Of a DNA stretch of 64,000 nucleotides, positions 44,701-59,415 are shown piece by piece. Under the pieces are notes generated by a model, which was given only the letters and a program-made list of their open reading frames with translations, did not search any database and had not been told where the DNA came from. The translations under genes were made by a program, and so were the position numbers. The stretch comes from Elusimicrobiota bacterium (GTDB lineage Bacteria; Elusimicrobiota; Elusimicrobia; UBA1565). Location of the stretch: contig JBDREN010000049.1 of NCBI GenBank assembly GCA_043819795.1, positions 2,379 through 66,378 of the forward strand, given 5' to 3'. Each line of letters starts with the position of its first letter. Positions within the stretch are counted from its first letter, which is position 1.

Positions 44701-45680
44701 ACCGTCTCCTGCTCACGGACATGCGGATGCCGGAGACGGACGGCGCGGACCTGGCGCGGGAGGTGCGCCGGGACCCGGCCTTGGCGGACGTTCCGATCGT
44801 GGTGATGACCTCGCTGGGGCAGTCGCTTCCCGCGGACCAGGCGCGCGAGGCCGGGATCGTGGGCTGGCTCTACAAGCCGGTCCGGTCGGCGGAGCTTCTC
44901 GCCTGTCTCGCCTTGGTCCTGGGCAAGGGCGGGCGGGAGCCCGCGGGGCCGGCGCCCGCACCTCCTCGATGGCGCGCGCGACGCAGACAGCGTCTTCGCG
45001 TGCTTCTCGTCGAGGATAACCCCGTGAACCGGAAAGTAGCCCTGATCCAGCTCGACAGGCTGGGGTACCAGGCCGACGCGGCGGCCAACGGCCTGGAGGC
45101 GCTCCGCGCGTTCGAGAAGGGCTCCTATGACCTGGTGCTCATGGACTGCGAGATGCCGGAGATGGACGGCTATCAGGCGACCGCGGAGATCCGCCGCCGC
45201 GAGGGGGCCCAGGATCGCGTCCCCATCATCGCCATGACGGCGCACGCGCTGAAAGGGGACCGCGAGAAGTGTCTGGCGGCCGGGATGGACGACTACGTCT
45301 CCAAGCCGGTCCGGTTCAAGGACCTGTCGGCGGCGCTGGCGCGCTGGGAGGATCCGCTGGACCGTTCCGTCGTGGACGATCTGCGCGAGGTCGCCGGCGA
45401 TGTGAGCGAGGTGGCCGGCGTCTTCCTGGAGGACGCCCCGAAGCGGATCGCGGCGATGCGCGGAGCCGTCTCGGCGGGCGATTCCCATAAGCTCGCTTTC
45501 GAGAGCCACCAGCTCAAGGGCGCGAGCGGCAGCATTGGCGCGAGGCGTCTGCGCCGGCTCTGCGCCCGGATCGAGGCGATCGCCAAGTCGGGCGCCGTCT
45601 CCGAGGTCGAGGGGCTCCTCAGCGGGCTGGAGGACGAGTTCCAGGAGGTTCAGGCGGGGCTCGAGAGGAATACTAGATAG
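41706..45680 (+). CDS. Soluble hybrid sensor histidine kinase (GAF, PAS repeats, HisKA, HATPase_c, 2x REC, HPt)
   Basis: No TM segment. GAF-like N-terminus and PAS repeats (FRDVTEQKRAE, FWDITERKRAE, VAQDITERKRME boundaries). H-box MSHELRTPLNAIIGMSDLL, G-boxes DTGLGI / GGTGLGLAI, receivers VLVVDDN..LLLTDMRMPETDG and VLLVEDNPVN..LVLMDCEMPEMDG, HPt ESHQLKGASGSIGA. TTG start at 41706 (alternative ATG 41763). Confidence 0.9.
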   Translation: MAAALDDKRGRNFLHYIKDMRAGRAGSEKARLAAAAESGLLDTPPEERFDRITRIARRHFGTSVAYISLVDADREWFKSRQGLRLRSVPREVSFGARVVRKSGVFSLVDARKDPKFSEHPLVAGGPRVRFVAACPLSTSDGSRVGALAIADRKPRRLGKGDLGALRDLARIAEAELRASGAHDPAAGTLRRVRDLQDFVDNVPELIQSVAPDGSFRYVNRAWRRALGYDEDDVARLNLFDIIAPESFAHCQDVFKRVMSGEYVQDMEAVFLAKGGGKVFLSGSANCHMESGKPTHTRAIFRDVTEQKRAEAELRKRTYELGERVKELNCLYGISALSERADISLEEFLQETAELILRSWQYPEVTCARITLEGREFRTRNFRESPWKQTADLQARGARFGSVEVYYLEKRPRRYEGPFLKEERRLLNAIAERLGKIAQRRRVEDALRKGEAGYRTLVDNLPQKVFLKDENSVYLSCNERYARDLKIRPEEILGRTDYEFFPRELAEKYRTDDKRIMESGRIEDLEEEYIEDGRRAIIQTVKTPIKDDSGVVVGVLGIFWDITERKRAEQKLRQLSLAVEHSPNIVMITDPEGKIEYVNPAFSSVAGYAPEDVLGRGAGELGEQSAEEQGRMWAAIRSGTVWRGEFPNKTKSGGSYWELASIAPIKDEDGNITHFVKVAQDITERKRMEAELAKARDQALAAAKAKAQFLAKMSHELRTPLNAIIGMSDLLLDTPLKHQQREYASTVHDSGEVLLSLINDVLDFSKLEVGKLQLESVEFDLRLLLEEAAQLCSFQAHAKGLEVLLAMPDDVPSALRGDSGRLRQILMNFLGNAVKFTEKGQVVLLASKEEEDERRAMLRLAVADTGLGIEPETQARLFEAFTQADASTTRRFGGTGLGLAISRQIIERMGGEFGVESSPGIGSTFWCRVPFEKAPGEGSAEAARKPDFSGARVLVVDDNAANREIMRERLSGWGMRPDVAAGAPEALDRLRREAAGPDPHRLLLTDMRMPETDGADLAREVRRDPALADVPIVVMTSLGQSLPADQAREAGIVGWLYKPVRSAELLACLALVLGKGGREPAGPAPAPPRWRARRRQRLRVLLVEDNPVNRKVALIQLDRLGYQADAAANGLEALRAFEKGSYDLVLMDCEMPEMDGYQATAEIRRREGAQDRVPIIAMTAHALKGDREKCLAAGMDDYVSKPVRFKDLSAALARWEDPLDRSVVDDLREVAGDVSEVAGVFLEDAPKRIAAMRGAVSAGDSHKLAFESHQLKGASGSIGARRLRRLCARIEAIAKSGAVSEVEGLLSGLEDEFQEVQAGLERNTR

Positions 45681-45712
45681 TATAAGGCGCAGTTTCCGGA
45701 GGAGGCCGCCAT

Positions 45713-47005
45713 ATGACATCCGAAACCCGTGGGTACGCGATCGTCTTGAGCGCGCTCCTGCTTCTGGCCGGGGGAGCCGGGGCCGGTCATGCGGCGCCGG
45801 ACAAGCTGGGGAAGGTCAACGTCCTGGGCGTCTGGAAAGGCGAGGAGCTGCGCAGCTTCCGGGCCGTGGTGAAGCCGTGGGAAAAGGAGACGGGCGGCAA
45901 GATGCGTTTCGAGGGCAGCCGGGACCTGTCGGCCGTCTTGACGGCTCGGGCGGCGAAGGGCGACGCGCCCGACGTCGCCATCCTGCCCAATCCCGGCCTC
46001 ATGGTCCAGCTGGCGAAGACGAAGAAGCTCGTCCCCCTCGACGGGATGCTGGATATGACGCATTTCGAGGCGGAGTACGCGCGGACCTGGATCGAGCTGG
46101 GATCGGTGGAGGGCAGCCTCTACGGCGTCTTCTACAAGGCCGCCAACAAGAGCACGCTTTGGTACAGCCCCCAGCAGTTCTCCGACCACCAGTGGCCGAT
46201 CCCGCGGACCTGGAAGAGCCTCCTGGCGGTGTCGGAAAGGATCCACGAGGAGGGCAAGACCCCCTGGGCCCTGGGCCTGGAAAGCGGGGATGCGAGCGGC
46301 TGGCCGGCCACCGACTGGATCGGCGAGATCCTGCTCAAGGAGTACGGCCCGGAGAAATACGACGCGTGGGTCGCGCATGAGATCCCCTGGACCGACGAAG
46401 CCGTGCGCTCGGCGTGGGAGAATTTCGGGCGGATCGCGCACGGCGAGGGATACGTGGCGGGAGGCGCTTCCGGGATATTGACCACCGGCTTCCGGGAAGC
46501 GGCGTACCGGGTCTTCCGGAAGCCACCGAAGGCGTATCTCTACTTCCTCGGGAGCTTTACCAAGAAATTCATCACCGAGCGGTTCTCCGGCCTGATGCCG
46601 GCGAAGGACTATTCCTTCATCCCGTTCCCGGCCTTGAACCCCGCATACAGCGGGGCCGTGACCGGCGGGGCGGACGTGGTCGTCGTGTTCAAGGACAACG
46701 CGACCACGCGCTCGTTCATCAACTATCTCGCCTCGGCCGAGGCTCAGGAGATCTGGGTCGAGCGCGGGGGCTTCACGGCCGTCAACCGGAAGGTCAGGCT
46801 CCACAGCTATCCCGACTGGGTCTCCGCGCGGATCGCCTTGCAGCTGTCGAACGCCAAGGTCTTCCGCTTCGACGCCGACGACCAGATGCCGGCCGAGGTC
46901 CAGAAGGCCTTCTGGAAGGGAGCGCTCGACTACGTCCGTGATCAGGCGAGCCTGGACCGCGTCCTCGAAGACATCGAAGCCGTCGCCCGGAAGGCCTACC
47001 GGTAG
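45713..47005 (+). CDS. ABC transporter extracellular solute-binding protein (family 1, sugar-type), orphan
   Basis: Signal peptide YAIVLSALLLLAGGAGAGHA and family-1 SBP pattern (VNVLGVWKGEE..DVAILPNPGLM..YKAANKSTLWY). No permease or ATPase genes follow. Confidence 0.85.
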   Translation: MTSETRGYAIVLSALLLLAGGAGAGHAAPDKLGKVNVLGVWKGEELRSFRAVVKPWEKETGGKMRFEGSRDLSAVLTARAAKGDAPDVAILPNPGLMVQLAKTKKLVPLDGMLDMTHFEAEYARTWIELGSVEGSLYGVFYKAANKSTLWYSPQQFSDHQWPIPRTWKSLLAVSERIHEEGKTPWALGLESGDASGWPATDWIGEILLKEYGPEKYDAWVAHEIPWTDEAVRSAWENFGRIAHGEGYVAGGASGILTTGFREAAYRVFRKPPKAYLYFLGSFTKKFITERFSGLMPAKDYSFIPFPALNPAYSGAVTGGADVVVVFKDNATTRSFINYLASAEAQEIWVERGGFTAVNRKVRLHSYPDWVSARIALQLSNAKVFRFDADDQMPAEVQKAFWKGALDYVRDQASLDRVLEDIEAVARKAYR

Positions 47006-47177
47006 CGTTGAAGCGGCCCGCTCGTAATGGGAAGGCCGTTCCCAAGCGAATCCGCGAGAGAGTGAGCGTCCTGGCCGGGTCGCCGCGTCTGTGTCTCCCC
47101 GGAAGGAACGAATGAATGCGTAGGCCGCGGGGCGAGCTTGCGGCGCTGGAAAGAATCCGCCGGTGTTGAACGCCGGT

Positions 47178-47220
47178 CCGCACGGCTGGGGATAGATCGG
47201 GAAAGTCCCCAGCCGTGCGG
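47178..47220. other. Perfect 15-bp stem hairpin (CCGCACGGCTGGGGA / TCCCCAGCCGTGCGG, 13-nt loop)
   Basis: Arms at 47178-47192 and 47206-47220 are exact reverse complements, followed by TGCTTTG. Possible weak terminator of the SBP transcript or a structured RNA element. Confidence 0.6.
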
Positions 47221-47470
47221 TGCTTTGAGGCCTGCCCGAGTATCCTAGCCCGAATTCCCCGTCTGGATCGCTGGATTCGACGCAAGATGCCGGGACTTTT
47301 CTGTGCGAAATGTCTCGACCGCACGGTTTCCTGACAGGGAGTGGAAGCGGCATTTCCTCGTGGTGACGCTTGGTCATGCCGCAGCGGGTACGCTCTCCAA
47401 ATTCCGCGTTGAACTGGCCTCGGCCTCTTGCATCTCGGTCCCACGCGCCCAACTGGGGAATCCGGGCCAG

Positions 47471-47771
47471 GTGTAGTGAACCATAAATCCCTTGACATTC
47501 GGGCGATCGATTTCGGCCTCCGGCTAGGCGCGGGGAGCGCGCATGCCCGCAGGTATGTAAGCGACGAGCAACGACGCCGGAAGCCAAAAGCGCCCGCCCC
47601 CTCCTCCTTGACGCGGACAGCGGCGAAATTCTATGGAAAGGGGAGGCCCGATCCCGGCCGATTCCCACGTTGCTCCTCGGTTGCATAGCTTAAGCCATGC
47701 GCCCTCATCGCGCCTCGAAATCGACTCGGGCTCGGGCCTCCAAATGACAAGGGATTTATGATTCACTACAC
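47471..47771. mobile_element. MITE-like non-autonomous element (~300 bp) bounded by 29-bp terminal inverted repeats
   Basis: GTGTAGTGAACCATAAATCCCTTGACATT (47471-47499) versus the reverse complement of 47743-47771 (GTGTAGTGAATCATAAATCCCTTGTCATT) matches at 27/29. Imperfect complementarity continues inward (CGATCGATTTCGG / CGAAATCGACTCG). No ORF inside. Confidence 0.45.
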
Positions 47772-47941
47772 TAGCGATGGCCACTTACTGATTCGGATGG
47801 GGCAAATCCTTTCTATAGCGCAGTATTGTTAAATATGAAACATGTGGCGCTGCTAAACGTTGCAAAAGAGAAACTAGAAGCAGTTTGGAGGCATTCTGAA
47901 CTGGTCAAAAAGAACGAAAAAAACGCAACTATTGGTGGCTA

Positions 47942-47970
47942 TTGCAAAATGGAACGATATCTGCTATAAT
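47942..47970 (+). promoter_or_regulatory. Promoter of the PAS/AAA+ regulator gene (sigma-70 TTGCAA-17-TATAAT, overlapping a sigma-54-like GG-N10-GC element)
   Basis: TTGCAA 47942-47947, 17-nt spacer, TATAAT 47965-47970 with TG at 47962-47963. Also TGGAACGATATCTGCT (47950-47965). RBS GGGAG lies 7 nt before ATG 48011. Confidence 0.5.
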
Positions 47971-48010
47971 AGAACCATAGCATACGTTTCCAGCCGCCGG
48001 GAGTTGATAT

Positions 48011-49369
48011 ATGCAGTTTGAAGGCCAAGGTCGTTTTTTCGAGACCATCCTCCGTTGTGTCGCTGACGGCGTGTTCACGGTGGACCGCGACTGGCGTATC
48101 ACCTCCTTCAATAAGGCGGCCGAGCGCATCACGGGCATGAGCGCCCGGCAGGCCATGGGCAAGAGATGCTCCGAAGTCTTTCACGCGGACCTCTGCGGTG
48201 ACGGCTGCGCCATCAGGCGGGCTCTCGAGACCAAACGCGAGGTCATCGAGCAGCCGGCCAATATCCGCGACCAGCGCGGCAGGGCGATCCCGATAAGCAT
48301 CAGCGCGGCCGTGCTTCGGGGGGAGGACGGGACCGTCCTCGGCGGGGTCGAGACGTTCCGCGACCTGTCGGCCATCGAGCAGCTCAGGCGCGAGATCCGG
48401 AGCCAGTACACCTTCGAGGAGATCGTCGGCAAGAGCGAGGCTTTCCAGAAGGTGTTCTCCATCCTGCCGGACGTCGCCGCCAGCGAGAGCACGGTCCTCA
48501 TCGAAGGCCCGAGCGGCTCCGGCAAACAGCTCCTGGCGCGGACCATACACAACCTGAGCCCCCGCCGGGATCGGCCTTACGTCGTGGCGAACTGCGGGAT
48601 GATGCCGTCCGGCCGCTGCGCGTCCGAGCTTTTCGGCCACGTGCGAGGCGCCTTCAAGGACGCCAAGGGGGACCGGCTCGGCCGCATCGCGCAGGCCGAA
48701 GGGGGGACCATCTTCCTGGACGAGATCGGCGACCTGTCGATGGAGAGCCAGGTCAGGCTCCTCAAGGTCCTTCGGGACGGAGAATACGAGCCGCTGGGCG
48801 GCGTCAGTCCCCGGCGCGCCGATGTGCGCGTGGTCGCTGCCACGAGCAAGAGCCTGCCGGATCTGGTCGGGCGGGGGCTTTTCCGCGACGATCTCTACTT
48901 CCGCCTGGCGGTGGTGCGGCTGAGCATACCGCCCCTGTCCGAGCGGCGCGAGGACATCCCCTGCCTGGTCGAGCACTTCGTCCAGCGCTTCAACGCCAAG
49001 CGCGGCAAGAGCATCCAGGGGGTGACGCCCGCGGCCATGGAGCTTCTCATGCGCCATGGTTTTCCCGGGAACGTGCGCGAGCTGGAGAACCTGATCGAAT
49101 GCGGCTTCGCTCTATGCCACGGCGGATGGATGGACGTCGGCCATCTGCCCGAGGATCTGAGGCCGTCGCGGCGGCCGGGCGCCGCCGGGCGCCGCCTCGA
49201 GGGCGCGTCCCTGCTCCGGCACATCGAGGCGGACGCGGTCCGCGCCTCCTTGGGGCGGAACGCGGGCCATCTCGGCCGCACGGCCGAGGAGCTGGGCATC
49301 AGCCGGACCACGTTGTGGCGCAAGATGAACAAGTACGCCATCGAAGCGGACGAGTTCCGGGCCGGTTGA
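48011..49369 (+). CDS. PAS-domain AAA+ enhancer-binding-protein-type transcriptional regulator (NtrC family, no receiver domain; GAFTGA replaced by GAFKDA)
   Basis: N-terminal PAS (ILRCVADGVFTVDRDWRITSFNKAAERITG), Walker A GPSGSGKQ, ELFGHVRGAFKDA, GGTIFLDEIGDL, RVVAAT, FRDDLYFRL, GNVRELEN, C-terminal Fis-type HTH GISRTTLWRKMNKY. Confidence 0.9.
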   Translation: MQFEGQGRFFETILRCVADGVFTVDRDWRITSFNKAAERITGMSARQAMGKRCSEVFHADLCGDGCAIRRALETKREVIEQPANIRDQRGRAIPISISAAVLRGEDGTVLGGVETFRDLSAIEQLRREIRSQYTFEEIVGKSEAFQKVFSILPDVAASESTVLIEGPSGSGKQLLARTIHNLSPRRDRPYVVANCGMMPSGRCASELFGHVRGAFKDAKGDRLGRIAQAEGGTIFLDEIGDLSMESQVRLLKVLRDGEYEPLGGVSPRRADVRVVAATSKSLPDLVGRGLFRDDLYFRLAVVRLSIPPLSERREDIPCLVEHFVQRFNAKRGKSIQGVTPAAMELLMRHGFPGNVRELENLIECGFALCHGGWMDVGHLPEDLRPSRRPGAAGRRLEGASLLRHIEADAVRASLGRNAGHLGRTAEELGISRTTLWRKMNKYAIEADEFRAG

Positions 49370-49388
49370 CCCGGGGGGAGAGAACGCG

Positions 49389-50762
49389 GTGAGCACCCAA
49401 AGGAAATACAGCTACTTCGTCGAGCCCAAGGCGCTCGAGGTCGCGGAGCGTCCGCGAAAATTCCTCATGGCATTCGCGGCCGTGCTGAAGAACGCCAGCT
49501 ACGGGCTGGCGCTCGATACGTACGCGCGCCTGAGCACCAAATGCGGGCGTTGCGTGGCCTCCTGTCAGCTCTATCAGACCACGCGCGAGGAGCGGGACAT
49601 CCCCTGCCATCGCTCCGAGCTCCTGCTGCGGGTGTACCGGCGGTACTTCACGCATTCGGGCCGCCTCAAGGCCAAGATATTCAGCGGTTTCGAGTTGACG
49701 GACGCCTACTTGGACGAGATGGGCGAGGCCTACTACCGCTGCACCGCCTGCCGGCGGTGCAAGGCCACCTGCCCCATGGGCATCGACCACGCCCTGGTCA
49801 CTCATCTGGCCCGGTGGCTGCTCTCGGAGATCGACGTCATCCCCAAGGCGCTGTTGGTGGCGACGCGCGAGCAGCTCGAGGGCGTCGGCAATACCTCGGC
49901 CATCCCGGTCCCCGCGCTCAAGGACACCTGCGAGTTTCTGGAGGAGGAGCTCAAGGAGATCACCGGCGTGGACATCAAGTTCCCCATGGATGTCGAGGGC
50001 GCCGAGTACGTCTTCTTCCCGGCGGTCTCGGACTATCTGCTCGAGGCGGACACCCTCATGGGCAACGCGGCCGTCATGCACGTCACCGGCGGGTCGTGGA
50101 CCATCGGCACGGGCAACTACGACGGCATCAACTACGGCCTGTTCTACAGCGATCGCATGATGGAGCGGATCGTCAACAACGTCGTCAAGGAGGTCCGCCG
50201 CCTCAAGGGGAGGAAGGTCCTCGTCGGCGAATGCGGCCACGCCACTCGCAGCGCCTGGTACGTGCCGGCCTTCGGCGGCCCGGACGCGCCGCCGGTGGTC
50301 AATTGCTTGCAGTACGCCCACCGGATGCTCGAGGCCGGGAAGCTCCCCCTGAAGAAAGAGCTTATCAAGGAGCGGGTCACCTATCACGATCCGTGCAATA
50401 TCGCCAGGAGCGGGCGGATCACCGAGGAGCCTCGGGAGCTCCTTAAGGCTATCTGCGGGGACTTCGTGGAGATGACGCCGAACCGCGCGGAGAACTACTG
50501 CTGCGGCGGAGGCGGCGGCACGGTCTCCATCGACGAGATCCGGGCTTTCCGCACGGGTCTCATGGGAAAGCGCAAGGCGGATCAGATCCGCGCGACCGGC
50601 GCCAAATACGTCGTGTCGCCCTGCGCCAACTGCAAGAAACAGCTCCGCGAGGTCTGCGAGGACAACGGCCTCAACGAGGTCGAGGTCGTGGGCCTGCACG
50701 ACCTGCTGCTGAAGGCGATCGACTTCGGGGTCCCCGAGAAGAAAGGAGAGGACGATGGGTGA
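49389..50762 (+). CDS. HdrD/DsrK/HmcF-like iron-sulfur protein (2x 4Fe-4S + CCG domain), cytoplasmic
   Basis: CGRCVASCQLY and CTACRRCKATCPMGIDH ferredoxin motifs. CCG-domain signatures YHDPCNIARS and NYCCGGGGG. Confidence 0.85.
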   Translation: MSTQRKYSYFVEPKALEVAERPRKFLMAFAAVLKNASYGLALDTYARLSTKCGRCVASCQLYQTTREERDIPCHRSELLLRVYRRYFTHSGRLKAKIFSGFELTDAYLDEMGEAYYRCTACRRCKATCPMGIDHALVTHLARWLLSEIDVIPKALLVATREQLEGVGNTSAIPVPALKDTCEFLEEELKEITGVDIKFPMDVEGAEYVFFPAVSDYLLEADTLMGNAAVMHVTGGSWTIGTGNYDGINYGLFYSDRMMERIVNNVVKEVRRLKGRKVLVGECGHATRSAWYVPAFGGPDAPPVVNCLQYAHRMLEAGKLPLKKELIKERVTYHDPCNIARSGRITEEPRELLKAICGDFVEMTPNRAENYCCGGGGGTVSIDEIRAFRTGLMGKRKADQIRATGAKYVVSPCANCKKQLREVCEDNGLNEVEVVGLHDLLLKAIDFGVPEKKGEDDG

Positions 50763-51465
50763 GCTAGAGATCTGGACCGAGTGGGCGCGCGGGCCGCTGT
50801 TCAGGGCCGCGCTGGCGTTCATGATCCTGGGCCTTCTGCGTCACGCGGCGTTGACCATATGGGAGCTGGCGGGGATCATGTACCGCGCCGGCGACAAGGC
50901 CTTCCCGTGGAGGCGGGCATTCTCCGCCACGCTAAAATGGCTTTTCCCGGTGGGGCAGATCAAGAACCGTGTCCTCTACAGCCTGACCACGCTCGGCTTC
51001 CATGCCGCCGTCATCATCGTTCCCGTTTTTCTCGCGGGCCACGTCGCGCTCTGGGAGCGGGGCACGGGCCTGTGCTGGCCGACCATCCCCAACGGCGTGG
51101 CGGACGTGCTGACGATCATGGCCGTGCTCGCGGCGGCCTTGCTCGTGGCGGAGCGCGCGGCCGCGCGGGACTCCCGGGCGCTGAGCCGCTTCCAGGACTA
51201 CGCCTTGCCCCTGCTCGTGGCCGCGCCCTTCGCGACCGGCTTCCTGGTCATGCATCCGGCTTTAAACCCGTTCGGCCATGAAGCGACGATTCTGGTCCAC
51301 GTGTTGAGCGCGGATATTCTGTTCATCCTCATCCCGCTGACCAAGCTGAGCCACATGATCCTGCTCCCGGGCACGCAGATCATCTCCGAGCTGTCCTGGC
51401 ATTTCCCGCCGGACGCCGGCAGGAAAGTGGGCGTCGATCTCGGGAAGGAGAAGCAACCCATATGA
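50755..51465 (+). CDS. NarI/DsrM/HmcE-like membrane cytochrome b subunit
   Basis: 8-nt overlap with the upstream gene. About 5 TM helices with conserved His (LLRHAAL, GFHAAVIIVP, GHVALWE, HVLSADILF, KLSHMILLP). Confidence 0.7.
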   Translation: MGELEIWTEWARGPLFRAALAFMILGLLRHAALTIWELAGIMYRAGDKAFPWRRAFSATLKWLFPVGQIKNRVLYSLTTLGFHAAVIIVPVFLAGHVALWERGTGLCWPTIPNGVADVLTIMAVLAAALLVAERAAARDSRALSRFQDYALPLLVAAPFATGFLVMHPALNPFGHEATILVHVLSADILFILIPLTKLSHMILLPGTQIISELSWHFPPDAGRKVGVDLGKEKQPI

Positions 51466-52595
51466 AGAAGCCCGTCGCCATCCTTACGGACACGACGCTC
51501 TGCACCGGCTGCGAGGAATGCGTCGCGGCGTGCAAGAAGGAGAACGGCCTGGGCGAGGATCGCCGGTGGCGCTGGCAAAGCTCCGTGAGCGAGCTTTCCG
51601 CGTCGCGCTTCACCGCAATCATCCGTCGGCCCGGCAACCGCTACGTCCGCCAGCAGTGCCGGCACTGCGTGGACCCGGCGTGCGTGAGCGCCTGCATCGT
51701 GGGCGCGCTGCGGAAGACGGAAGAAGGCGCGGTGGTCTACGACCAGGATAAGTGCATCGGCTGCCGTTACTGCATGCTGGCCTGCCCCTACGGGATCCCG
51801 CGCTACGATTGGGAGAAGCCGATCCCGTACATCAGGAAGTGCACGCTCTGCTATGACAGGCTTGAGGAGGGAAAGGCCCCCGCCTGCGTGGAGGCCTGCC
51901 CCGAGAAGGCGACGATATTCGGCTCCCGCTCCGATATGCTGGCCGAGGCCCATCGGCGCCTGAAACGGCATCCCGGGAAGTACGTCCAGAAGGTCTACGG
52001 GGAACGCGAGGTGGGGGGGACGTCGGTCCTCTACATCTCGGACATACCCCTTGATTTCCTCGGCTGGCAGACCGATCCCGGCGAGCGGCCGCTGCCGGAC
52101 CTCACGTGGGCCGCCCAAAGGAAGATCCCGGCCGCGGCTCTGGGGGTGTTCGGGCTCATGGGCGGCACCTACTGGGTCATCGGCCGGAGGATGCAGGCCG
52201 CGGCGCGGGCGGGCCTGAAAGACGCGCCCCGGGAAGGGGACGCCCCGTCCGTGGGGCACGGGCATCCGGAGCAGGGAGGGGCCCTCTCCGGCCTGAAGAC
52301 GGCCCTGTGGATGCCTCTCGGCGTGGTGGCGGCCGTGACCATCGTGCGTTTCGCGCGGAATCTGGACGCGGCCGCGAGCCTCGGGGACGGAGCCCTCTGG
52401 ACCCTGTGGCTCGCCCTCGGCGTGGCGGGAGGCACCGGTCTCGGGGCGGGGATCCATTGGCTCGCCGCCCGCCGCAAGAAGGCGCCGGAGGAGGACGCGG
52501 AGCCCGAGGAAGGAACTCCCACCCCGCCCGTCCAGGCGTCGAAGACTTCCGTTCCCAAGCAGATCGCGGGCGACGGCGGCCCGAAGGAGCGATAG
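51462..52595 (+). CDS. Four-cluster 4Fe-4S ferredoxin subunit (HybA/HmcB/DsrO/NrfC-like) with C-terminal TM helices and no signal peptide
   Basis: ATGA overlap. CTGCEECVAAC, CRHCVDPACVSAC, CIGCRYCMLACP, CTLCYDR..CVEACP. The first Cys is residue 14 (MKKPVAILTDTTLC). Three hydrophobic segments lie after residue ~215. Confidence 0.85.
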   Translation: MKKPVAILTDTTLCTGCEECVAACKKENGLGEDRRWRWQSSVSELSASRFTAIIRRPGNRYVRQQCRHCVDPACVSACIVGALRKTEEGAVVYDQDKCIGCRYCMLACPYGIPRYDWEKPIPYIRKCTLCYDRLEEGKAPACVEACPEKATIFGSRSDMLAEAHRRLKRHPGKYVQKVYGEREVGGTSVLYISDIPLDFLGWQTDPGERPLPDLTWAAQRKIPAAALGVFGLMGGTYWVIGRRMQAAARAGLKDAPREGDAPSVGHGHPEQGGALSGLKTALWMPLGVVAAVTIVRFARNLDAAASLGDGALWTLWLALGVAGGTGLGAGIHWLAARRKKAPEEDAEPEEGTPTPPVQASKTSVPKQIAGDGGPKER

Positions 52596-52599
52596 GGCG

Positions 52600-54561
52600 A
52601 TGATGCCTCTGAGAAGAATCAAGAGCCTGCTCTGGTTCGTCCTGGGCGCGGGCATGGTGACCATCGCCGCGCGGCTGCTCACCGGGCTCGGCGCGGTCAC
52701 CAACCTGTCCCACAACGTTTCCTGGGGCCTGTGGAACGCGGTCAAGATCAGCATCGTGCCCCTCTCGGCCGGAGGGTTCGTTTTGGCTGCGATCGTCTAC
52801 GTCTTCCATATGGAGAGGTTCCGTCCCGTGCTCCGTTTGGCCATCCTTACGGGGTTTTTGGGCTACTCGACCTTCGCCACGATGCTCATGTTCGATATCG
52901 GGGTGCCCTACCGGATATGGCATCCCATGGTCTACTGGCAGCACCATTCCGTGCTCTTCGAAGTGGCGTGGTGCGTGATGCTGTATCTGACCGTGCTGGC
53001 CCTCGAGTTCTTGCCCAACGTGCTGGAGCATCCTCTGCTGAAGCACCCCCTGCTCCAGAAGGGATACAAGCTCCTGAAGAGCGCGACCGTACCCCTGGTG
53101 ACCGCGGGGATCGTGCTGTCCACGCTGCACCAGTCGTCGTTGGGCTCGCTGTTTTTGATCGTCCCCCACCGTCTCGATCCCTTATGGTACAGCCCGCTGA
53201 TACACGCGCTCTTCCTGGTCTCCGCCGTCGGGATGGGGCTTCTGGTGATCGCCGTGGAGGCGGTCCTGATCGAGCGTCTCTACGGCGTCAAGGCGCCGCT
53301 GGACGTCCTCGCCCCTTTGGCCCGCGCGGGCGCGGTGGTGATGGCCCTCTTCTTGGCCGTCAGGCTGGCCGACCAGGTCGCTCGCGGGGTGCTCCCGGGT
53401 GCTCTGAGCACATCTCCGATGGCGGCGGCATTCGTCCTTGAGACTCTGATCGCCTCGATCGTGCCGCTGCTGCTTCTGCGCAGGAGCGTCCGCGAGAGCC
53501 GCGGGGGCCTGTTCGCCTGCTCTCTTTCCGCGGTGCTGGGAGTCGTCTGGTACAGGTCGAACGTCGCCTTGCTGGCCATCGACTGGGGCGAGGCGGCCTA
53601 TTTCCCGGCGTGGACCGAGTTCGCCCTGTGCTTCGGCATACTGGCCGGGTCGGGCTTGGTGTTCTTCTTGCTGCTGGAGAACCTGGACATTTATTACGGG
53701 CCGGCCGCATCCGGCCGTGACCGCGAGCCGCAGGTGCCGGGGTTGGCGTTCGAGGCTTGGCTGGCGGACGCGAGGATCACCGCGGCCAGGCGCTATTCCC
53801 TGTTCATCGTGGCGGGCGCGGCGGCGGCCGTCTTGTTTCTCCCCGAGGGCACGGTGTTCGGAGCCAGGCCCGCGGACACGCCGGCGGCGCAGGCCCGGCG
53901 GGTCCGGGGCTTGTCGGTCCGGACCGGCGGCGGACGCGTCAGCACGCTGCGCCTCGGCGAGAGGCCGGTCCCCGCTAAGGGCCGAGTGAAGCGCCTGCCG
54001 CTTTACCTGATTGACGGCGACCGCGATGAGGACGCGGTCCTCTTCGATCACGCGGGCCATGTCAAGCGGGCGGGCGGCGAGAAGCGCTGCGGGGTGTGCC
54101 ATCACCTGAACATGCCGCTCGACGAGAACACCTCCTGCCATGAATGTCATCGCGACATGTACGAGCCCGCCTCCGTGTTCAGCCACGCATCGCATGTGCG
54201 CGAACTCGGGGGGAACGCGGGCTGCGTCAAGTGCCATGAGGATCCTCTCGTGGTGAAGGACCGCCGGACGGCCGTCGCTTGCGGGGAATGCCACTCCGAT
54301 TCGGCGGCAAAGGGCTCCTTCGTCGAGGCGCCGGGGCCGAGGTGGGGGGCCGCGCCGGGCTACGCGGACGCGATGCACGGCCTCTGCGAGAGTTGTCATA
54401 AGAAGAAGGCGAAAGAAGAGCCGGGCCGTTATCCCGCGGCGCTGGGGCGTTGCGCCGCCTGCCACGATACGGACCGCCCCATGGATATCCGTCGGATGGC
54501 GCCGCGAAGTGATAGAATGCGGGCCATGCGCGCCGAGGAACGCGGGCTCTCGGGCGGCTGA
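52600..54561 (+). CDS. NrfD/DsrP/HmcC-like quinone-interacting membrane subunit fused to a C-terminal hexahaem cytochrome c domain
   Basis: NrfD hallmark GLGAVTNLSHNVSWGLWNAVKISIV plus multiple TM helices, then an extra TM (RRYSLFIVAGAAAAVLFL). Six CxxCH motifs lie between 54088 and 54465 (CGVCH, CHECH, CVKCH, CGECH, CESCH, CAACH). Confidence 0.85.
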   Translation: MMPLRRIKSLLWFVLGAGMVTIAARLLTGLGAVTNLSHNVSWGLWNAVKISIVPLSAGGFVLAAIVYVFHMERFRPVLRLAILTGFLGYSTFATMLMFDIGVPYRIWHPMVYWQHHSVLFEVAWCVMLYLTVLALEFLPNVLEHPLLKHPLLQKGYKLLKSATVPLVTAGIVLSTLHQSSLGSLFLIVPHRLDPLWYSPLIHALFLVSAVGMGLLVIAVEAVLIERLYGVKAPLDVLAPLARAGAVVMALFLAVRLADQVARGVLPGALSTSPMAAAFVLETLIASIVPLLLLRRSVRESRGGLFACSLSAVLGVVWYRSNVALLAIDWGEAAYFPAWTEFALCFGILAGSGLVFFLLLENLDIYYGPAASGRDREPQVPGLAFEAWLADARITAARRYSLFIVAGAAAAVLFLPEGTVFGARPADTPAAQARRVRGLSVRTGGGRVSTLRLGERPVPAKGRVKRLPLYLIDGDRDEDAVLFDHAGHVKRAGGEKRCGVCHHLNMPLDENTSCHECHRDMYEPASVFSHASHVRELGGNAGCVKCHEDPLVVKDRRTAVACGECHSDSAAKGSFVEAPGPRWGAAPGYADAMHGLCESCHKKKAKEEPGRYPAALGRCAACHDTDRPMDIRRMAPRSDRMRAMRAEERGLSGG

Positions 54562-54565
54562 AACC

Positions 54566-55681
54566 ATGGCCCCCAAAGAGATAGAAAGCTGGCTTCGATC
54601 GAGCCTCTTTAACGAGGTCCCGGTGAGCATCTGCGTGATCGACCGGGGTTTCCGGATCATCGAGGCGAACCGGAGGTTCAGGGAGGAATACGGCCCCTGG
54701 AAGGACCGGGCGTGCCACGAGGTCTGCAAGGGTCTGGAGGAGCCCTGCGAGCGTTGCGGCGCGGTCAAGACCTTCTCGGACGGGCGCGTGCGCAACCGGG
54801 AGGAGACGGGAGCGGGCGGGAAGCACTACCTGGTGCACATGGTCCCCATCACCACCGACGGCGGGGATATCTCCTACGTCATCGAGACGTTCACGGATAT
54901 CACGCAGGTGAAGCAGCTGGAGGGCGAGAAGCGCGAAGCCGAGCGTCTGGCCGCCGTCGGCGAGACCGTGGCCGGCATCGCCCACGGCATGAAGAACGTG
55001 CTTACCGGGCTCGAAGGCGGCGTCTATGCCGTCAATACGGGCATCCAGCATGGCGACGACGAGAGGATCACCGAAGGCTGGGCCATGCTCGAGGAGAATA
55101 TCGCGCGCATCTCGGAGTTTGTCAAGGAGTTCCTGGCTTTCTCCAAGGGGCGCATCGCGCGGGTGGCCTTCGTGGACCCCAACGCCCCGGCGCGGGCGGT
55201 CTTTGAGCTCTTCCGGGAGAAGGCCGCGCAGGCGGGCATCGAGCTGAAGGCGGACCTGCAAGAGGGGATTCCTCCCGCGCCCCTGGACGAGCAGGGGATC
55301 CACGCCTGCCTGGCCAACCTCGTATCGAACGCCCTGGACGCCTGCTCCATGGGCGAGCAGCGGCGCGCGTGCGTGGTGACGATTCGCTCCCGGGAGCGCA
55401 GCGGGACGCTAGTGTACGAGGTTGCGGACAACGGCCGCGGGATGGACTACGAGATCAGTAGGAAAGTGTTTTCGAGGTTCTTCAGCACGAAGGGCTCGGA
55501 CCGGGGCACGGGTCTGGGGCTGCTCACCACTAAGAAGACCATCCACCAGCACGGCGGCCGGGTCTCGTTCAGCTCCGAGGAGAGCAGGGGCTCGGTGTTC
55601 CGCATCGAGCTTCCCCGGGAAAGACTGCCCAAGCCGGGCGGGAAGCCCGCCCAACGACAGGCCGCGGAAGGAGACGCCTGA
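54566..55681 (+). CDS. Cytoplasmic PAS sensor histidine kinase
   Basis: ATG 54566 (MAPKEIESWL..). PAS with a four-Cys cluster, H-box LAAVGETVAGIAHGMKNVL, N/G boxes LVSNALDA, DNGRGM, GTGLGL. Confidence 0.85.
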   Translation: MAPKEIESWLRSSLFNEVPVSICVIDRGFRIIEANRRFREEYGPWKDRACHEVCKGLEEPCERCGAVKTFSDGRVRNREETGAGGKHYLVHMVPITTDGGDISYVIETFTDITQVKQLEGEKREAERLAAVGETVAGIAHGMKNVLTGLEGGVYAVNTGIQHGDDERITEGWAMLEENIARISEFVKEFLAFSKGRIARVAFVDPNAPARAVFELFREKAAQAGIELKADLQEGIPPAPLDEQGIHACLANLVSNALDACSMGEQRRACVVTIRSRERSGTLVYEVADNGRGMDYEISRKVFSRFFSTKGSDRGTGLGLLTTKKTIHQHGGRVSFSSEESRGSVFRIELPRERLPKPGGKPAQRQAAEGDA

Positions 55682-56229
55682 TGGACAAAGAGAACGCCAA
55701 AGGACGCGCCGAGGATAAGACCGTACTCGTGGTCGATGACGAGCCGAACGTGCGCCGCCACCTGGCCCACATCCTAGAGGACGCCGGCTTCAAGGTCCTT
55801 ACGGCCTCCGATGGGGATGAGGCCCTGAAGACCATCCGGGAGCGGCGCCCGGACATCATCTCGCTCGACCTGGTCATGCCGCGCAAGAGCGGGCGCCGGC
55901 TGCTCTACGAGCTGAAGAAGGATAAGGAGCTCTCCCGCATCCCGGTGGTCATCGTCACCGCGCACGCCCAGGACGAGCTGGGCCAGAGCGACATGGAAGC
56001 CATCAGGGAGAGCATGATCATATCGGGCCCGGGCTTCTATCTGGAGAAGCCGGTTAGGCCCATGGACTACGTGCGCTGCATCCAGGAAGCCCTGGGCATC
56101 GAAGTGGCGGATCAAGCCGCGGACAAAGTCAGCCTCAAGGACGAGCTGAAGCGGCAGATGCAGGGGGCGGAGCCGCACGCGCTGCGCCGCGCCCTCGAGG
56201 CGTTGAGAAAGAAAGGCCCGCCGCGCTAG
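55681..56229 (+). CDS. Response regulator, receiver domain with short C-terminal extension (no recognised output domain)
   Basis: TGATG overlap with the kinase gene. VLVVDDEPNVR..DIISLDLVMPRKSG..VVIVTAH..LEKP. Confidence 0.85.
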   Translation: MDKENAKGRAEDKTVLVVDDEPNVRRHLAHILEDAGFKVLTASDGDEALKTIRERRPDIISLDLVMPRKSGRRLLYELKKDKELSRIPVVIVTAHAQDELGQSDMEAIRESMIISGPGFYLEKPVRPMDYVRCIQEALGIEVADQAADKVSLKDELKRQMQGAEPHALRRALEALRKKGPPR

Positions 56230-56248
56230 AGGGCCGAGGAGACCTGCG

Positions 56249-56602
56249 ATGGCGAAGAAGATCCTGATCGTCGAAGACGAGCCGCACGTCGTGAAGTATC
56301 TCGAGATGTTCCTCCACGACGCGGGCTTCCAGACGGTATCCGCGAGCGACGGTCAGACGGGTCTGGAGCTGGCCAAGCGCGAGAAGCCGGACCTGGTGAT
56401 CCTGGACCTTATGATGCCGAAGAAGACGGGGACGGACTTCTACCGGAAGCTCTCCAGGGACAAGGAGCTCGGCGATACCCCCGTCATCGTGGTCAGCGGT
56501 CTGGCCGGCCGAGATCTCGTCGTCAGGAAGCCTGCGGCGGTGTTCGACAAGCCCCCGGACCGCGAGGGGCTCATCGCCGCCATCAAGAAAGCCCTCCCGT
56601 AG
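56249..56602 (+). CDS. Single-domain response regulator (receiver only)
   Basis: KILIVEDEPHV..DLVILDLMMPKKTG..VIVVSG..FDKP. Confidence 0.85.
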   Translation: MAKKILIVEDEPHVVKYLEMFLHDAGFQTVSASDGQTGLELAKREKPDLVILDLMMPKKTGTDFYRKLSRDKELGDTPVIVVSGLAGRDLVVRKPAAVFDKPPDREGLIAAIKKALP

Positions 56603-56708: not shown

Positions 56709-57752
56709 ATGCTGTACAAGGTGATCACGAAGGCCGAGTTTCGGAAGTTCGTCGACGGCCTGATCCAGGACAACCAGACTATAGGCCCCAAGCGGGTCGC
56801 CACGGACGCGAAAGGCAAGCCCGTCTACCAGTTTGTCGAGGTCCGCTCCTTCGACGAGTTGGACCTCGACTACACGATCACCTACTCCTCGGTGAAGAAT
56901 TTCTTCCACCCCTTCCGCGAGGAGCTGTCTCGTTTCAAGCTGAAAGATGACGATTGGGAGCAGGAGATCGAATACCGCGTCAATCCGAGGGTCATCATCG
57001 GCGTGCGGCCGTGCGACATCAACGCCTTGGCGATCCTGGACAAGGTGTTCTTGAGCGGGAGATTCCCCTCGCCGTACTACATCGCCCGGCGCCGGAACAC
57101 CTTCCTGATCGGAATGGACCATCTGCCCCTGGATGACTGCTTCTGCGAGTCCCTGAACCGGCACGCCCCGCGCGAGGGGTTCAACCTCTACTGCTCGGAC
57201 ATCGGGGACAGATACTATCTCTCGATCCTTTCCTCAAAGGCCTTCAGCTTCCTCAAGAACGTGAGGACGAGCGAGCCCTCCAAGGCGGACAACAAAAGAT
57301 ACATCGAGAGAAGAAAGCTCATCAAACGGAGCTTCAAGACCAAGGTGGAGGTCTCGGGCCTGCCGAGCTTCCTGGACATCGAGTTCAAGTCCCCGATATG
57401 GGATAAATGGGGGGACAAGTGCCTGAACTGCGGGACATGCGCCATGGTCTGCCCCACGTGCTACTGCTACGGGGTGGAGCAGTCCGTGGACGTGGACCTG
57501 AAGACCGCCCGCAAGGAGCGCATGCTGTACTCCTGCAACGTCGTGGATTTCGCGGAGGTGGCCGGAGGGCACAACTTCAGGCCGAAGAAGGCGGACAGGC
57601 TGAAGTACCGGTTCTATCACCATTACAGGGGTTTCGAGGAGAACGCCGACGAGCAGATCTGCGTTGGCTGCAACCGGTGCGGCAGGGCCTGCCTGGCGGG
57701 GATCAACCCGAAGGACGTGATCAACGACTTGAGGCTGGAGACCGGAGAATGA
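56709..57752 (+). CDS. [NiFe] hydrogenase group 3b-type beta subunit (AsrA/HydB-like Fe-S protein)
   Basis: [37 protein letters not shown]. First gene of the beta-gamma-delta-alpha order known from sulfhydrogenases. Confidence 0.8.
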
Positions 57753-58663
57753 AGGCGGGATTCAAAATACCCAGGCAGGACATCAATCTCGAGCCGTTCA
57801 TGACGGCGCCTCCCCAGTTCAACCGCAAGACCATCGTCATGCGCACGGACAAGGTCTACAAGTGCGAGCTCATCAACATCGTCGAGCTGACCTCCATGGA
57901 GAAGCTCTTCCATCTCAAGATCATCGACCCCCGCGAGAGGAAGCTGTTCTCCTTCCGGCCGGGACAGTTCGTGATGGTCCAGGTGCCCGGCTCCGGGGAG
58001 GTCCCGGTCTCCATATCGAGCTCGAGCAACAACCGGGAGTTCCTGGAGCTGTGCGTCCGCAGGGCGGGGCGCACCACCGGCATGCTGCACCGGGCCCGGA
58101 TCGGCGCGAAGGTGGGGATCCGCGGGCCCTTCGGCTCGTCTTTCCCCATGGAGGAGATGGCTGGCCACAACGTCCTGCTGATCGCCGGAGGGCTCGGCCT
58201 GGCCCCCCTGCGCGCCCCCATCTGCTGGGTCAACGAGCGCCGGGACCAGTACGGCGACGTCCACATCCTCTACGGCGCCAAAGAGCCTTCCCAGATGCTC
58301 TTCACGTACGAATTCAAGGAATGGGAACGGGTGAACCACATCAATCTGCTGACCATCGTCGAGAAGGCGGACAAGGCCTGGAAGGGCGGGACGGGCCTCA
58401 TCACCGAGCTCTTCAGGGATTTCTCCATCAAGCCGCTCGACACCTACGCGATCGTGTGCGGGCCGCCCGTCATGTTCAAGTTCGTGTGCGGGCATCTGGA
58501 CTCCATCGGGGTTCCCATGAACCGCATGTTCGTCTCCCTGGAGCGGCGGATGCACTGCGGCATGGGCAAGTGCTGCCGGTGCATGGTGGGCTCGACGTTC
58601 ACCTGCGTGGAAGGCCCCGTGTTCGACTACTGGAGCGTCATGAATTTGAAGGAGGCGATTTGA
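57749..58663 (+). CDS. [NiFe] hydrogenase group 3b-type gamma subunit (FAD/NAD(P)-binding, 2Fe-2S; AsrB/HydG-like)
   Basis: ATGA overlap (57749-57752). [36 protein letters not shown]-terminal [10 protein letters not shown] cluster. Confidence 0.85.
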
Positions 58664-59415
58664 GATACCTCGGCATCGAGCTCAAGAAGCCCAGGATCGC
58701 CGTCTTCGACTTCACCTGCTGCGAGGGCTGCGAGCTGCAGCTGGCGAACAAGGAGGAGACCCTGGTCGATTTCCTCTCCCTTGTCGAGGTCGTGAACTTC
58801 CGGGAGGTGTCCTCGGACAAGAGCGAGGACTACGAGATCGCCTTCGTGGAGGGGGCGGTCTCGAGGGAGGATGAGGTCGCTCGCCTGAAGAAGATCAGGG
58901 TGAACGCGAAGGTCCTCGTGGCTTTCGGCGCCTGCGCCTGCTTCGGCGGCGTGAACCAGATCAAGAACAAGTTCCCGCTCAAGTCGGTCGTCCGAGAGGT
59001 GTACGGCAGGCACCGCGTGGCCACGTCCAAGGTGCGGAAGATCAGCGAAGTGGTCAAAGTGGATCTCGAGATCCCGGGCTGTCCGGTCTCCAAGAAAGAG
59101 GTGGAAAGGATCGTCGTCGCTCTGGTCACGGGCGCGGGCATCAGCCTGCCGAAGTACCCCGTCTGCCTCGAGTGCAAGGCGAAGTGCAACGTCTGCGTCC
59201 TGGACCTCGGGCAGATCTGCCTGGGTCCGATCACGCGCGCGGGCTGCGATTCGCCCTGCCCATCCGGGGGGACCGCGTGCCTGGGCTGCAGGGGGCCGGC
59301 GCCCGAGGCCAATTACGAGTCGTTCCTGCGGATATTGAAAGACCGGGGCTTCAAGGCCCCGGAGATCAAGGAGAGGCTCGAGTTCTACGGCGCCTTCAAC
59401 GGGGTCATGAGATGA
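58660..59415 (+). CDS. [NiFe] hydrogenase small (delta) subunit, group 3 type
   Basis: TTG 58660 overlaps the gamma stop, with GAAGGAGG upstream. [28 protein letters not shown], and distal cluster cysteines [12 protein letters not shown]. Confidence 0.85.

Follow-up and report, generated by a model that had tools for sequence, protein, structure and literature searches.

The Hmc, Tmc and DsrMKJOP complexes serve as models of electron transfer among the periplasm, the quinone pool and the cytoplasm in anaerobes. A 64-kb stretch of an Elusimicrobiota metagenome-assembled genome (MAG; GC content of the sequence 66%), referred to here in its entirety as the window, contains a cassette of four adjacent genes whose products resemble subunits of these complexes, and raises the question whether the cassette specifies one of them in a rearranged form or a complex of its own kind. 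An earlier note on this DNA had described an Hmc/DsrMKJOP-like complex with an altered gene order and a fused cytochrome that matched none of the named complexes, a description that is supported by the below-cutoff scores of the proteins in family-specific (equivalog) profile searches. We consider it probable, at roughly 70%, that the four genes encode one membrane-spanning redox complex of respiratory type, which belongs to the Hmc/Tmc/DsrMKJOP class and represents a separate, previously unnamed family. The structural genes are as follows.

49389-50762, + strand: CCG-domain Fe-S subunit of the DsrK/HmcF/TmcB type, cytoplasmic (457 amino acids, GTG start)
50755-51465, + strand: NarI/HmcE/TmcC-type cytochrome b with five transmembrane (TM) helices (236 amino acids)
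51462-52595, + strand: tail-anchored ferredoxin with four [4Fe-4S] clusters, HmcB/HybA-like (377 amino acids)
52600-54561, + strand: NrfD-cytochrome c fusion gene (653 amino acids)

According to the open reading frame (ORF) calls, the first two junctions are overlaps of 8 and 4 nt and the third is a gap of 4 nt, and a GGAG-type ribosome-binding site precedes each of the four starts. The GC content at third codon positions is 0.86-0.90, indicating that the four ORFs are genuine coding genes. These data confirm the translational coupling, with the overlaps and the gap, that the earlier note had reported, and Pfam and NCBIfam bear out its assignment of the products as a CCG protein, a cytochrome b, a four-cluster ferredoxin and an NrfD protein with a hexahaem cytochrome c. 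Together with the regulators described below, the structural genes form a functional unit at 48011-56602. TamB and one Omp85 protein are encoded in the window, so the organism is diderm and 'periplasm' is the correct term. An Rfam scan of the window gave no matches.

Relationship to the named complexes

NCBIfam equivalog cutoffs were used as thresholds for membership in the named families, with scores given below as score/cutoff in bits. For the Hmc proteins the window subunits reached HmcB 246/420, HmcC 224/550, HmcE 117/275 and HmcF 200/750, which is about 27-59% of the cutoffs, and HmcA 26/400. The corresponding values were DsrK 274/400, DsrO 120/200 and DsrP 28/350 for Dsr, TmcB 203/735 and TmcC 126/240 for Tmc, HybA 209/263 and HybB 222/450 for Hyb, and QrcC 67/400 and QrcD 124/570 for Qrc. 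Arranged by subunit, DsrK was the best profile for the CCG protein, followed by TmcB and HmcF; the cytochrome b matched TmcC and HmcE and had no match to the DsrM model; HmcB and HybA were found for the ferredoxin, and HmcC and HybB for the NrfD core.

A comparison within a single genome is provided by another Elusimicrobiota MAG (GCA_042569715.1, locus L085), where the cassette is followed immediately downstream by a canonical Tmc/Hmc cluster (10071-16821). This cluster encodes, in order, TmcD, TmcC, TmcB, HmcB, HmcC, a protein of the HmcD family (DVU_0533 family) and a large HmcA-like cytochrome. Its scores are TmcD 488/440, TmcC 292/240, TmcB 712/735, HmcB 456/420 and HmcC 637/550, and the HmcA-like protein, which is truncated by the contig end, stays below its cutoff at 370/400. 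The window proteins are only 31-40% identical to the Tmc/Hmc paralogs of L085, as opposed to 64-85% to its cassette proteins, and they share 45-85% identity with cassette orthologs of other phyla. Moreover, the canonical HmcB of L085 has an N-terminal signal (MRISRKKFLG), whereas the cassette ferredoxin of the same genome has none. The low scores and the coexistence of a canonical cluster in L085 thus indicate that the cassette is a distinct, deep paralogous family. As a separate observation, the L085 cluster is a single operon that draws its components from both Tmc and Hmc, and it occurs in a phylum other than Desulfobacterota.

It is very improbable that the cassette is an ordinary member of Hmc or DsrMKJOP with a shuffled gene order. 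Such an assignment would account for the top-scoring profiles (HmcB, HmcC, HmcE/TmcC and DsrK), for the presence of the same functional modules and for the name '[DsrC]-trisulfide reductase subunit K', which the auto-annotation of the Joint Genome Institute (JGI) gives to a few of the orthologs. However, all equivalog scores are far under cutoffs that the canonical neighbours in L085 mostly pass, the identity to that cluster is low, HmcA, HmcD and DsrJ are lacking, the ferredoxin is without a twin-arginine translocation (Tat) signal, and the hosts are mostly not sulfate reducers. The earlier note was also right that dsrAB, dsrC, apr and qmo are missing: none was found in the window in a Pfam survey of its genes, nor were dsrAB or dsrC present in the flanks of 80 related loci. 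Clean clustering inside a characterised family of the same architecture, which the earlier note had named as the outcome contrary to its reading, is not what the low equivalog scores and the paralog identity reveal. Judged by its sequences, the cassette is a member of the Hmc/Tmc/Dsr architectural class, yet it fails membership in each of the named families.

The composition of the cassette can be set against each of these families in turn. With Hmc it shares all modules except HmcD, including a cytoplasmic single-CCG Fe-S protein with a GECGH motif, as in HmcF. The earlier claim that all Hmc modules A-F are present therefore holds for the other modules and fails for the small hydrophobic HmcD, for which the overlapping or abutting genes leave no ORF room; in L085, a DVU_0533-family gene is found in the canonical cluster only. 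Hmc further has a separate 16-haem HmcA, in contrast to the six-haem domain fused to NrfD in the cassette, and an HmcB with a Tat signal, in contrast to the signal-less ferredoxin. In Hmc terms the gene order of the cassette is F-E-B-C(+A), and Rrf1/Rrf2 regulation in Hmc contrasts with a sigma-54 activator and a two-component system in the cassette, whose hosts belong to phyla of non-sulfate-reducers.

DsrMKJOP resembles the cassette in having five modules, with the cytochrome c between ferredoxin and cytochrome b, and it is the best mechanistic template. Unlike the cassette, with its six predicted bis-His haems fused to NrfD, it contains a trihaem DsrJ with a His/Cys haem, and it is associated with dsrAB/dsrC, neither of which is linked to the cassette. 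The CCG subunit and the cytochrome b resemble TmcB and TmcC of the Tmc complex, but TmcA and TmcD are lacking and the ferredoxin/NrfD module is additional. HybA and HybB are near-best matches; in contrast to the Hyb system, no periplasmic hydrogenase is linked to the cassette, which has the fused cytochrome c and the CCG/cytochrome b pair in addition. A tail-anchored signal-less ferredoxin together with a HybB-like protein likewise occurs in the hitchhiker modules of FeFe hydrogenases (PMC10924467).

The periplasmic half of the cassette follows the same logic as Geobacter Cbc4/CbcSTU, Nhc, Ohc, Qrc and alternative complex III, but these are without a cytochrome b/CCG module and their cytochromes are separate subunits. 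Neither an ActB/QrcB molybdopterin-like subunit nor ActD, ActE or ActF was found at the window locus or at the annotated related loci. Finally, EtfD (Rv0338c) and HdrED also combine a membrane domain of NarI type, with haem b, and a CCG Fe-S domain. EtfD, however, is a single fused polypeptide that passes electrons from electron transfer flavoprotein (ETF) to menaquinone and lacks the NrfD, ferredoxin and cytochrome c parts, whereas HdrD has two CCG motifs as opposed to one in the cassette subunit.

Distribution and conservation

The fusion protein is 100% identical to an NCBI protein of an Elusimicrobiota MAG, encoded on a contig of 91 kb. The architecture of NrfD followed by a cytochrome is shared by more than 120 full-length homologs of the fusion protein (45-69% identity), and the best 120 matches listed for the fusion and for the CCG subunit come from MAGs or metagenomes throughout. 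A scan with one genome per species yielded 566 relatives, the best 80 of which were used for the analyses of loci. All 80 carry the cytochrome domain, all are MAGs, and they represent about 12 phyla, with hosts among the Latescibacterota, Gemmatimonadota, Planctomycetota, Thermodesulfobacteriota, Zixibacteria, Myxococcota, Acidobacteriota, Chloroflexota, Fibrobacterota, Pseudomonadota and others. Most of these phyla do not respire sulfate.

The order CCG subunit, cytochrome b, ferredoxin, NrfD-cytochrome c is found in at least 60 of the 80 related loci, and the overlapping stop/start codons of the structural genes are strictly conserved across phyla. In most loci these genes are part of a larger cassette, in which a PAS sigma-54 activator precedes the four structural genes and a PAS histidine kinase and two response regulators follow. 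Across phyla the CCG subunit is the most conserved (55-84% identity, and 78-85% among the best 120 database matches listed), with values of ~50-68% for the ferredoxin, ~35-67% for the cytochrome b and 37-50% for the NrfD-cytochrome c. Clustering of flanking ORFs identified only one other recurrent gene, a NifX-like ORF (PF02579) of ~115-135 amino acids that is located between the activator and the CCG gene in 26 loci (e.g., L001 4654-5004, L002 4659-5033). Its product contains conserved APCF and CGG cysteines and could possibly be an accessory factor or a redox partner of the CCG subunit.

Besides the JGI name mentioned above, the database labels of the subunits are generic, such as '(Fe-S)-binding protein', 'Fe-S oxidoreductase', 'Ni/Fe-hydrogenase cytochrome b subunit' and 'NrfD/PsrC family molybdoenzyme membrane anchor'. 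No account of the cassette or of its function was found in the literature searched, which included a review of NrfD, papers on Qrc/NrfD phylogeny and on Tat tail anchors, reviews of Geobacter Cbc, and papers on Methanoperedens, cable bacteria, Deferribacter and Anaeromyxobacter, with an earlier description not fully excluded.

The CCG subunit and the cytochrome b

Pfam identifies the CCG domain and two 4Fe-4S motifs in the CCG subunit, the latter with the cubane ligands C52/C55/C59/C73 and C118/C121/C124/C128. A single, complete CCG motif is formed by C336, C371-C372, C412 and C415 (CX34CCX39CX2C), and a GECGH motif is present at G280-E281-C282-G283-H284. Among 54 family members, these ligands and the GECGH motif show at least 93% conservation, and in 34 close homologs most of them are invariant. 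One CCG motif combined with the cysteine of a T/GECGH motif is the signature common to DsrK, HmcF and TmcB (PMC10861901). With its two cubane motifs, one CCG motif and this cysteine, the cassette subunit is of the DsrK/HmcF/TmcB type on the evidence of its motifs. The DsrK-like catalytic motif suggests the reduction of a cytoplasmic substrate of the disulfide or persulfide type; we know of no cytoplasmic substrate established to date for HmcF/TmcB-type subunits.

The cytochrome b is predicted from hydropathy and the positive-inside rule to have five helices and, like NarI, an external N-terminus and an internal C-terminus. H96 and H182 are present in 62 of 62 cytochromes b of the family and H83 and H200 in 54 of them; with two His pairs, in helices 2 and 5, the protein is a predicted dihaem cytochrome of the NarI/DsrM/HmcE type. 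Given the NarI-like topology, H96/H182 would ligate the haem on the positive side of the membrane (P-side) and H83/H200 that on the negative side (N-side).

The conservation of these ligands varies with the presence of the CCG gene. This gene is missing in seven loci of Planctomycetota (L018, L019, L022, L024, L030, L031 and L036) and one of Myxococcales (L057), which constitute a three-gene variant that is also without regulators. The cytochromes b of all eight loci have lost H83 and H200 and kept H96/H182, and in the 49 cytochromes b that are encoded beside a CCG gene all four histidines are retained without exception. This co-variation is suggestive, but not strong, support for the electron path proposed below.

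The variant also bears on whether the four genes could encode two independent, co-regulated modules, namely a DsrMK/HdrED-like quinol:disulfide reductase made up of the CCG subunit and the cytochrome b, and a Cbc4/Nhc-like quinone:cytochrome c oxidoreductase made up of the ferredoxin and the NrfD-cytochrome c. Precedents for modules that stand alone exist in organisms with only DsrMK, in Geobacter CbcSTU and in tail-anchored ferredoxin/HybB/cytochrome modules. Against such a division, gene order and stop/start overlaps are strictly kept across phyla, and the CCG-less variant retains the cytochrome b with the ferredoxin and the NrfD-cytochrome c, which assigns it to the periplasmic module and parallels the contact of DsrM with DsrJ in the solved complex. 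We therefore regard two separate modules as unlikely, and a single complex as the preferred interpretation.

In six of the Planctomycetota variant loci, the next gene encodes a membrane-anchored cytochrome of ~850 amino acids with eight paired CXXCH repeats, which fits a periplasmic side that communicates with cytochromes. The same neighbour is relevant to the direction of electron flow. Instead of delivering electrons to a cytoplasmic substrate, the CCG subunit may take up cytoplasmic electrons that then go on to quinone and/or to cytochromes in the periplasm or outside the cell, in which case the complex would act as a respiratory exit. A combination of NarI and CCG modules can indeed carry electrons outward, as in EtfD (PMC8593149), and NrfD proteins of the HybB/HmcC type are regarded as quinone reductases (PMC6303296). 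EtfD is also the nearest solved relative of the CCG subunit: it was the sole match in a sequence search of the PDB (9ojn), and the AlphaFold2 model of the subunit (predicted local distance difference test, pLDDT, 72) is nearest to EtfD of M. smegmatis, LutA and HdrB. Nevertheless, the catalytic cysteine in the GECGH motif is of DsrK type and DsrK is the top profile, so that we consider outward flow a serious though doubtful alternative; it concerns direction and does not contradict the architecture of the single complex proposed here.

The NrfD-cytochrome c fusion

The fusion protein is composed of three parts.

52600-53682, + strand: core of the NrfD/HmcC/HybB type, ten TM helices with a predicted quinone site
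53776-53838, + strand: eleventh TM helix, by which the C-terminal domain reaches the other side of the membrane (AlphaFold2 helix 393-413)
53887-54474, + strand: beta-rich linker and hexahaem c3/c7-like cytochrome c domain, periplasmic

The core matches the NrfD family in Pfam (PF03916) with 70 bits against a cutoff of 25.8. An AlphaFold2 model of the fusion, based on an alignment of 66 sequences (pLDDT 78.9, predicted template modelling score 0.73), arranges the protein as ten TM helices, the eleventh helix, a beta-rich region at ~430-482 and the haem domain, and the eleventh helix is preceded by a conserved PRRYS motif. Among solved folds, Foldseek places the core nearest to ActC of alternative complex III (E = 1e-7, target-normalised TM-score ~0.6), and a sequence search of the PDB with the fusion protein gave no match. 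With the Pfam domain and ten modelled helices that lack a redox cofactor, the core is assigned to the 10-TM NrfD/PsrC subgroup.

In the C-terminal part, where Pfam finds cytochrome c3/c7 and class III cytochrome c, six CxxCH motifs are invariant in all 66 homologs of the fusion protein, and six further histidines of the fusion (H484, H487, H502, H529, H532 and H593) are invariant as well. Such a set of motifs and additional histidines is consistent with six bis-His haems. The hexahaem module belongs to a family of 336 representatives at 50% identity. Domains with haem c are matured at the membrane's P-side. The haem c domain of the fusion is consequently located there, which places the termini of the NrfD core in the cytoplasm and its ferredoxin-binding face in the periplasm, the canonical orientation.

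The ferredoxin and its route to the periplasm

Two elements within the ferredoxin gene are of interest here.

~52125-52181, + strand: anchor helix of the ferredoxin
52284-52469, + strand: relic copy of NrfD helices 1-2, in frame at the C-terminus of the ferredoxin (residues ~275-336)

In Pfam the ferredoxin matches Fer4_11, and the family alignment contains 16 invariant cysteines, sufficient for four [4Fe-4S] clusters. The protein aligns only from positions 36-38 of the HmcB and HybA profiles and no in-frame start codon exists between the upstream stop and its ATG, from which it follows that the ferredoxin has no signal peptide, as the earlier note had proposed. Directly behind the anchor helix, a W-[IV]-[IV]-x-R-R-[MN] motif is found in 43 of 52 family members (~52182-52202 in the window, residues 241-247), whereas the canonical HmcB of L085 lacks it. 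The number of lysines and arginines around the helix averages 1.79 before and 3.96 after it (n = 47).

The relationship to HmcB and HybA, the bias of charge on the two sides of the anchor, the orientation of NrfD and the CCG-less variant lead us to infer that the Fe-S domain of the ferredoxin is in the periplasm. Signal-less tail-anchored ferredoxins are known to hitchhike on partners with a Tat signal, for instance FdnG or an FeFe hydrogenase (PMC10924467). For the cassette ferredoxin, the possibilities are a partner that is not linked to the cassette, a targeting determinant of a new kind, or a location in the cytoplasm.

The first of these would apply if the ferredoxin and NrfD were the anchor of an unlinked, Tat-exported periplasmic hydrogenase or formate dehydrogenase with which the ferredoxin travels, in which case the cassette would be the half of a larger enzyme that couples it to quinone and cytoplasm. 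A signal-less ferredoxin with a C-terminal tail does resemble FdnH and the hitchhikers of FeFe hydrogenases (PMC10924467), and HybA and HybB are top matches that are nearly equal to the Hmc proteins. Yet no partner gene recurs in the flanks of the 80 loci, and the adjacent hydrogenase of the window, whose position beside the cassette is not conserved elsewhere, is group-3b-like, cytoplasmic and devoid of a Tat signal. A periplasmic entry for electrons is, moreover, already provided by the fused hexahaem domain. An anchoring function of this kind appears rather unlikely to us.

A cytoplasmic location is decidedly unlikely. In this arrangement the Fe-S domain of the ferredoxin would form an enlarged Fe-S module with the CCG subunit, and haem c would feed the cytochrome b directly. 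Consistent with it, no family member has an export signal on the ferredoxin, and SoeABC is a precedent for a cytoplasm-facing NrfD. It is at odds, however, with the charge bias of the anchor and with the orientation of NrfD, which is fixed by the 10 + 1 helices and the periplasmic cytochrome c. In addition, a cytoplasmic ferredoxin would be disconnected in the CCG-less variant, where the cytochrome b is without N-side ligands. We therefore retain the periplasmic placement in what follows.

The ferredoxin of the window is ~100 amino acids longer than the family norm, and the extra C-terminal tail is the NrfD helix 1-2 relic. The relic shares 44-55% identity with residues 5-66 of NrfD-cytochrome c proteins of other phyla and only 30% with the NrfD of the window itself. 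A similar tail is present in the Elusimicrobiota locus L085 and none in L084. Partial duplication or gene replacement are both possible origins. Recombination as an origin is not supported, the ferredoxin core being nearest to Elusimicrobiota relatives (72-75%) as compared with other phyla (68%). Apparent fusions of ferredoxin and NrfD, in ORFs of 900-990 amino acids, would have settled the topology of the ferredoxin but were rejected as artefacts of tblastn extension, as an in-frame stop separates the two genes.

Proposed electron path

The cryo-electron microscopy structure of DsrMKJOP contains a continuous chain of cofactors, with DsrJ on the periplasmic face of DsrM, and the path argued for this complex starts with the oxidation of menaquinol at DsrP and continues through DsrO, DsrJ and DsrM to DsrK (preprint 10.64898/2026.08.25.746951). 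By analogy, the cassette subunits can be mapped one-to-one onto this chain. A single wire would then connect a P-side menaquinone/menaquinol site in NrfD with the ferredoxin clusters, the haems c, the P-side haem b, the N-side haem b, the cubanes and the non-cubane cluster. The fused hexahaem domain would occupy the bridging position of DsrJ and could in addition offer a docking, entry or exit surface for periplasmic cytochromes. Overall, the complex may couple the quinone pool and/or periplasmic cytochromes c to a cytoplasmic reduction or oxidation of thiol/disulfide or persulfide type, and this coupling would involve charge separation across the membrane.

Several observations weigh against this interpretation. 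That the four proteins associate physically is deduced solely from the order of the genes, their translational coupling and analogy, and the AlphaFold2 models are monomers of moderate confidence (pLDDT 79 for the fusion and 72 for the CCG subunit). The co-variation of haem ligands with the CCG gene amounts to ~2 independent lineages, and the cytochrome b of one CCG-less locus (L055) keeps all four histidines. An export signal is missing from the ferredoxin of every family member and, in the clustering of flanking ORFs from the 80 loci, no partner with a Tat signal is encoded in the cassette, which leaves the periplasmic site unsecured. No candidate for the substrate, such as DsrC, is linked to the cassette and the NifX-like ORF is absent from the window. 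Lastly, the sigma-54 assignment of the promoter in the window, described in the next section, is ambiguous.

A broader reading, which we offer tentatively as possible, is that the cassette represents an undescribed, widespread family of energy-transducing membrane complexes in uncultured phyla that do not reduce sulfate (Gemmatimonadota, Planctomycetota, Latescibacterota, Elusimicrobiota, Acidobacteriota, Chloroflexota and others). The DsrK-like subunit (78-85% identity across phyla) might act on a universal cytoplasmic thiol/persulfide carrier, and the quinone pool and periplasmic cytochromes would thereby be linked to sulfur/thiol redox chemistry outside dissimilatory sulfate reduction. The ferredoxin would reach the periplasm with neither a Tat signal of its own nor a linked partner, possibly by means of the twin-arginine motif at its tail anchor.

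For the study of such complexes, the cassette provides a comparative handle: the same logic is found in about a dozen phyla, in four compact genes with sensors of their own and in variants with and without the CCG subunit. Abundant uncultured bacteria of soil, sediment, groundwater and wastewater may commonly conserve energy or balance redox by this unannotated route, for which generic labels like 'Fe-S oxidoreductase' and 'Ni/Fe-hydrogenase cytochrome b subunit' mislead metabolic reconstructions. The periplasmic-type ferredoxin without a signal is a concrete puzzle for Tat biology, and the extreme conservation of a DsrK-like subunit outside the sulfate reducers adds to the relevance of the family.

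Regulation

The regulators of the functional unit and the promoter-like site upstream of it are as follows.

47942-47970, + strand: promoter-like site upstream of the activator gene
48011-49369, + strand: sigma-54-dependent activator, PAS-AAA+-helix-turn-helix, no receiver domain (Pfam, NCBIfam)
54566-55681, + strand: PAS histidine kinase, soluble (likely start ATG at 54566; ORF from 54509)
55681-56229, + strand: response regulator with a receiver domain and a C-terminal extension of ~60 amino acids, no DNA-binding domain
56249-56602, + strand: stand-alone receiver-domain response regulator

Expression of the cassette would be controlled by the sigma-54 activator and the two-component system. 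The site at 47942-47970 is a strong sigma-70-type sequence (TTGCAA-17-TATAAT, extended TG) that overlaps a weaker sigma-54-like sequence, TGGAAC-N5-CTGCT, at 47950-47965. It is the only promoter-like site for the operon, and lies in a non-coding region of ~1 kb (47006-48010, GC 0.61) between a gene for a solute-binding protein and the activator gene. In the window, no sigma-54 element immediately precedes the CCG gene, which is separated from the activator gene by a gap of 19 nt, so that the intergenic promoter region of other loci is missing. Among those loci, 21 of 28 contain a TGG-N9-TGC element in the interval from the activator gene to the structural genes, as compared with 16% of shuffled controls. 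The elements are at a consistent distance and are preceded by GTTTCA/TGAAAC palindromes; the strict sigma-54 consensus was matched in 3 of 57 loci only.

Both sensory proteins have three invariant cysteines in the PAS domain, C53, C62 and C66 (C-x8-C-x3-C) in the activator and C69, C80 and C83 (C-x10-C-x2-C, in the numbering of the ORF from 54509) in the kinase, and neither has a membrane segment. The invariant cysteines suggest that the state of cytoplasmic redox, thiols or a metal cluster may be sensed.

Other genes in the window

A four-subunit cytoplasmic NiFe hydrogenase is encoded at 56709-60686, on the same strand and 106 nt downstream of the last response regulator. Its top profiles are those of the sulfhydrogenases ShyABCD/HydABGD (group-3b-like), all of them below cutoff, and the hydrogenase genes do not adjoin the cassette in other phyla.

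A second cytochrome b/CCG pair is found towards the end of the window. A MerR regulator (61757-62272) is followed by a NarI/DsrM-like cytochrome b of 295 amino acids (62269-63156) and by a second DsrK-like Fe-S protein, whose gene begins near 63146 and is cut off by the end of the window; its N-terminal 284 amino acids score 139 bits with the DsrK profile. Like the regulators and the wide distribution of the cassette, this pair adds to the earlier description. Three other loci have a cytochrome b similar to that of the second pair in the vicinity of the cassette, and in L003 the cassette is preceded by a MerR gene.

On the other side of the cassette, the region 41706-47005 encodes a hybrid sensor kinase of 1324 amino acids (GAF, three PAS, HisKA, HATPase, two receivers and Hpt), followed by the extracellular solute-binding protein.

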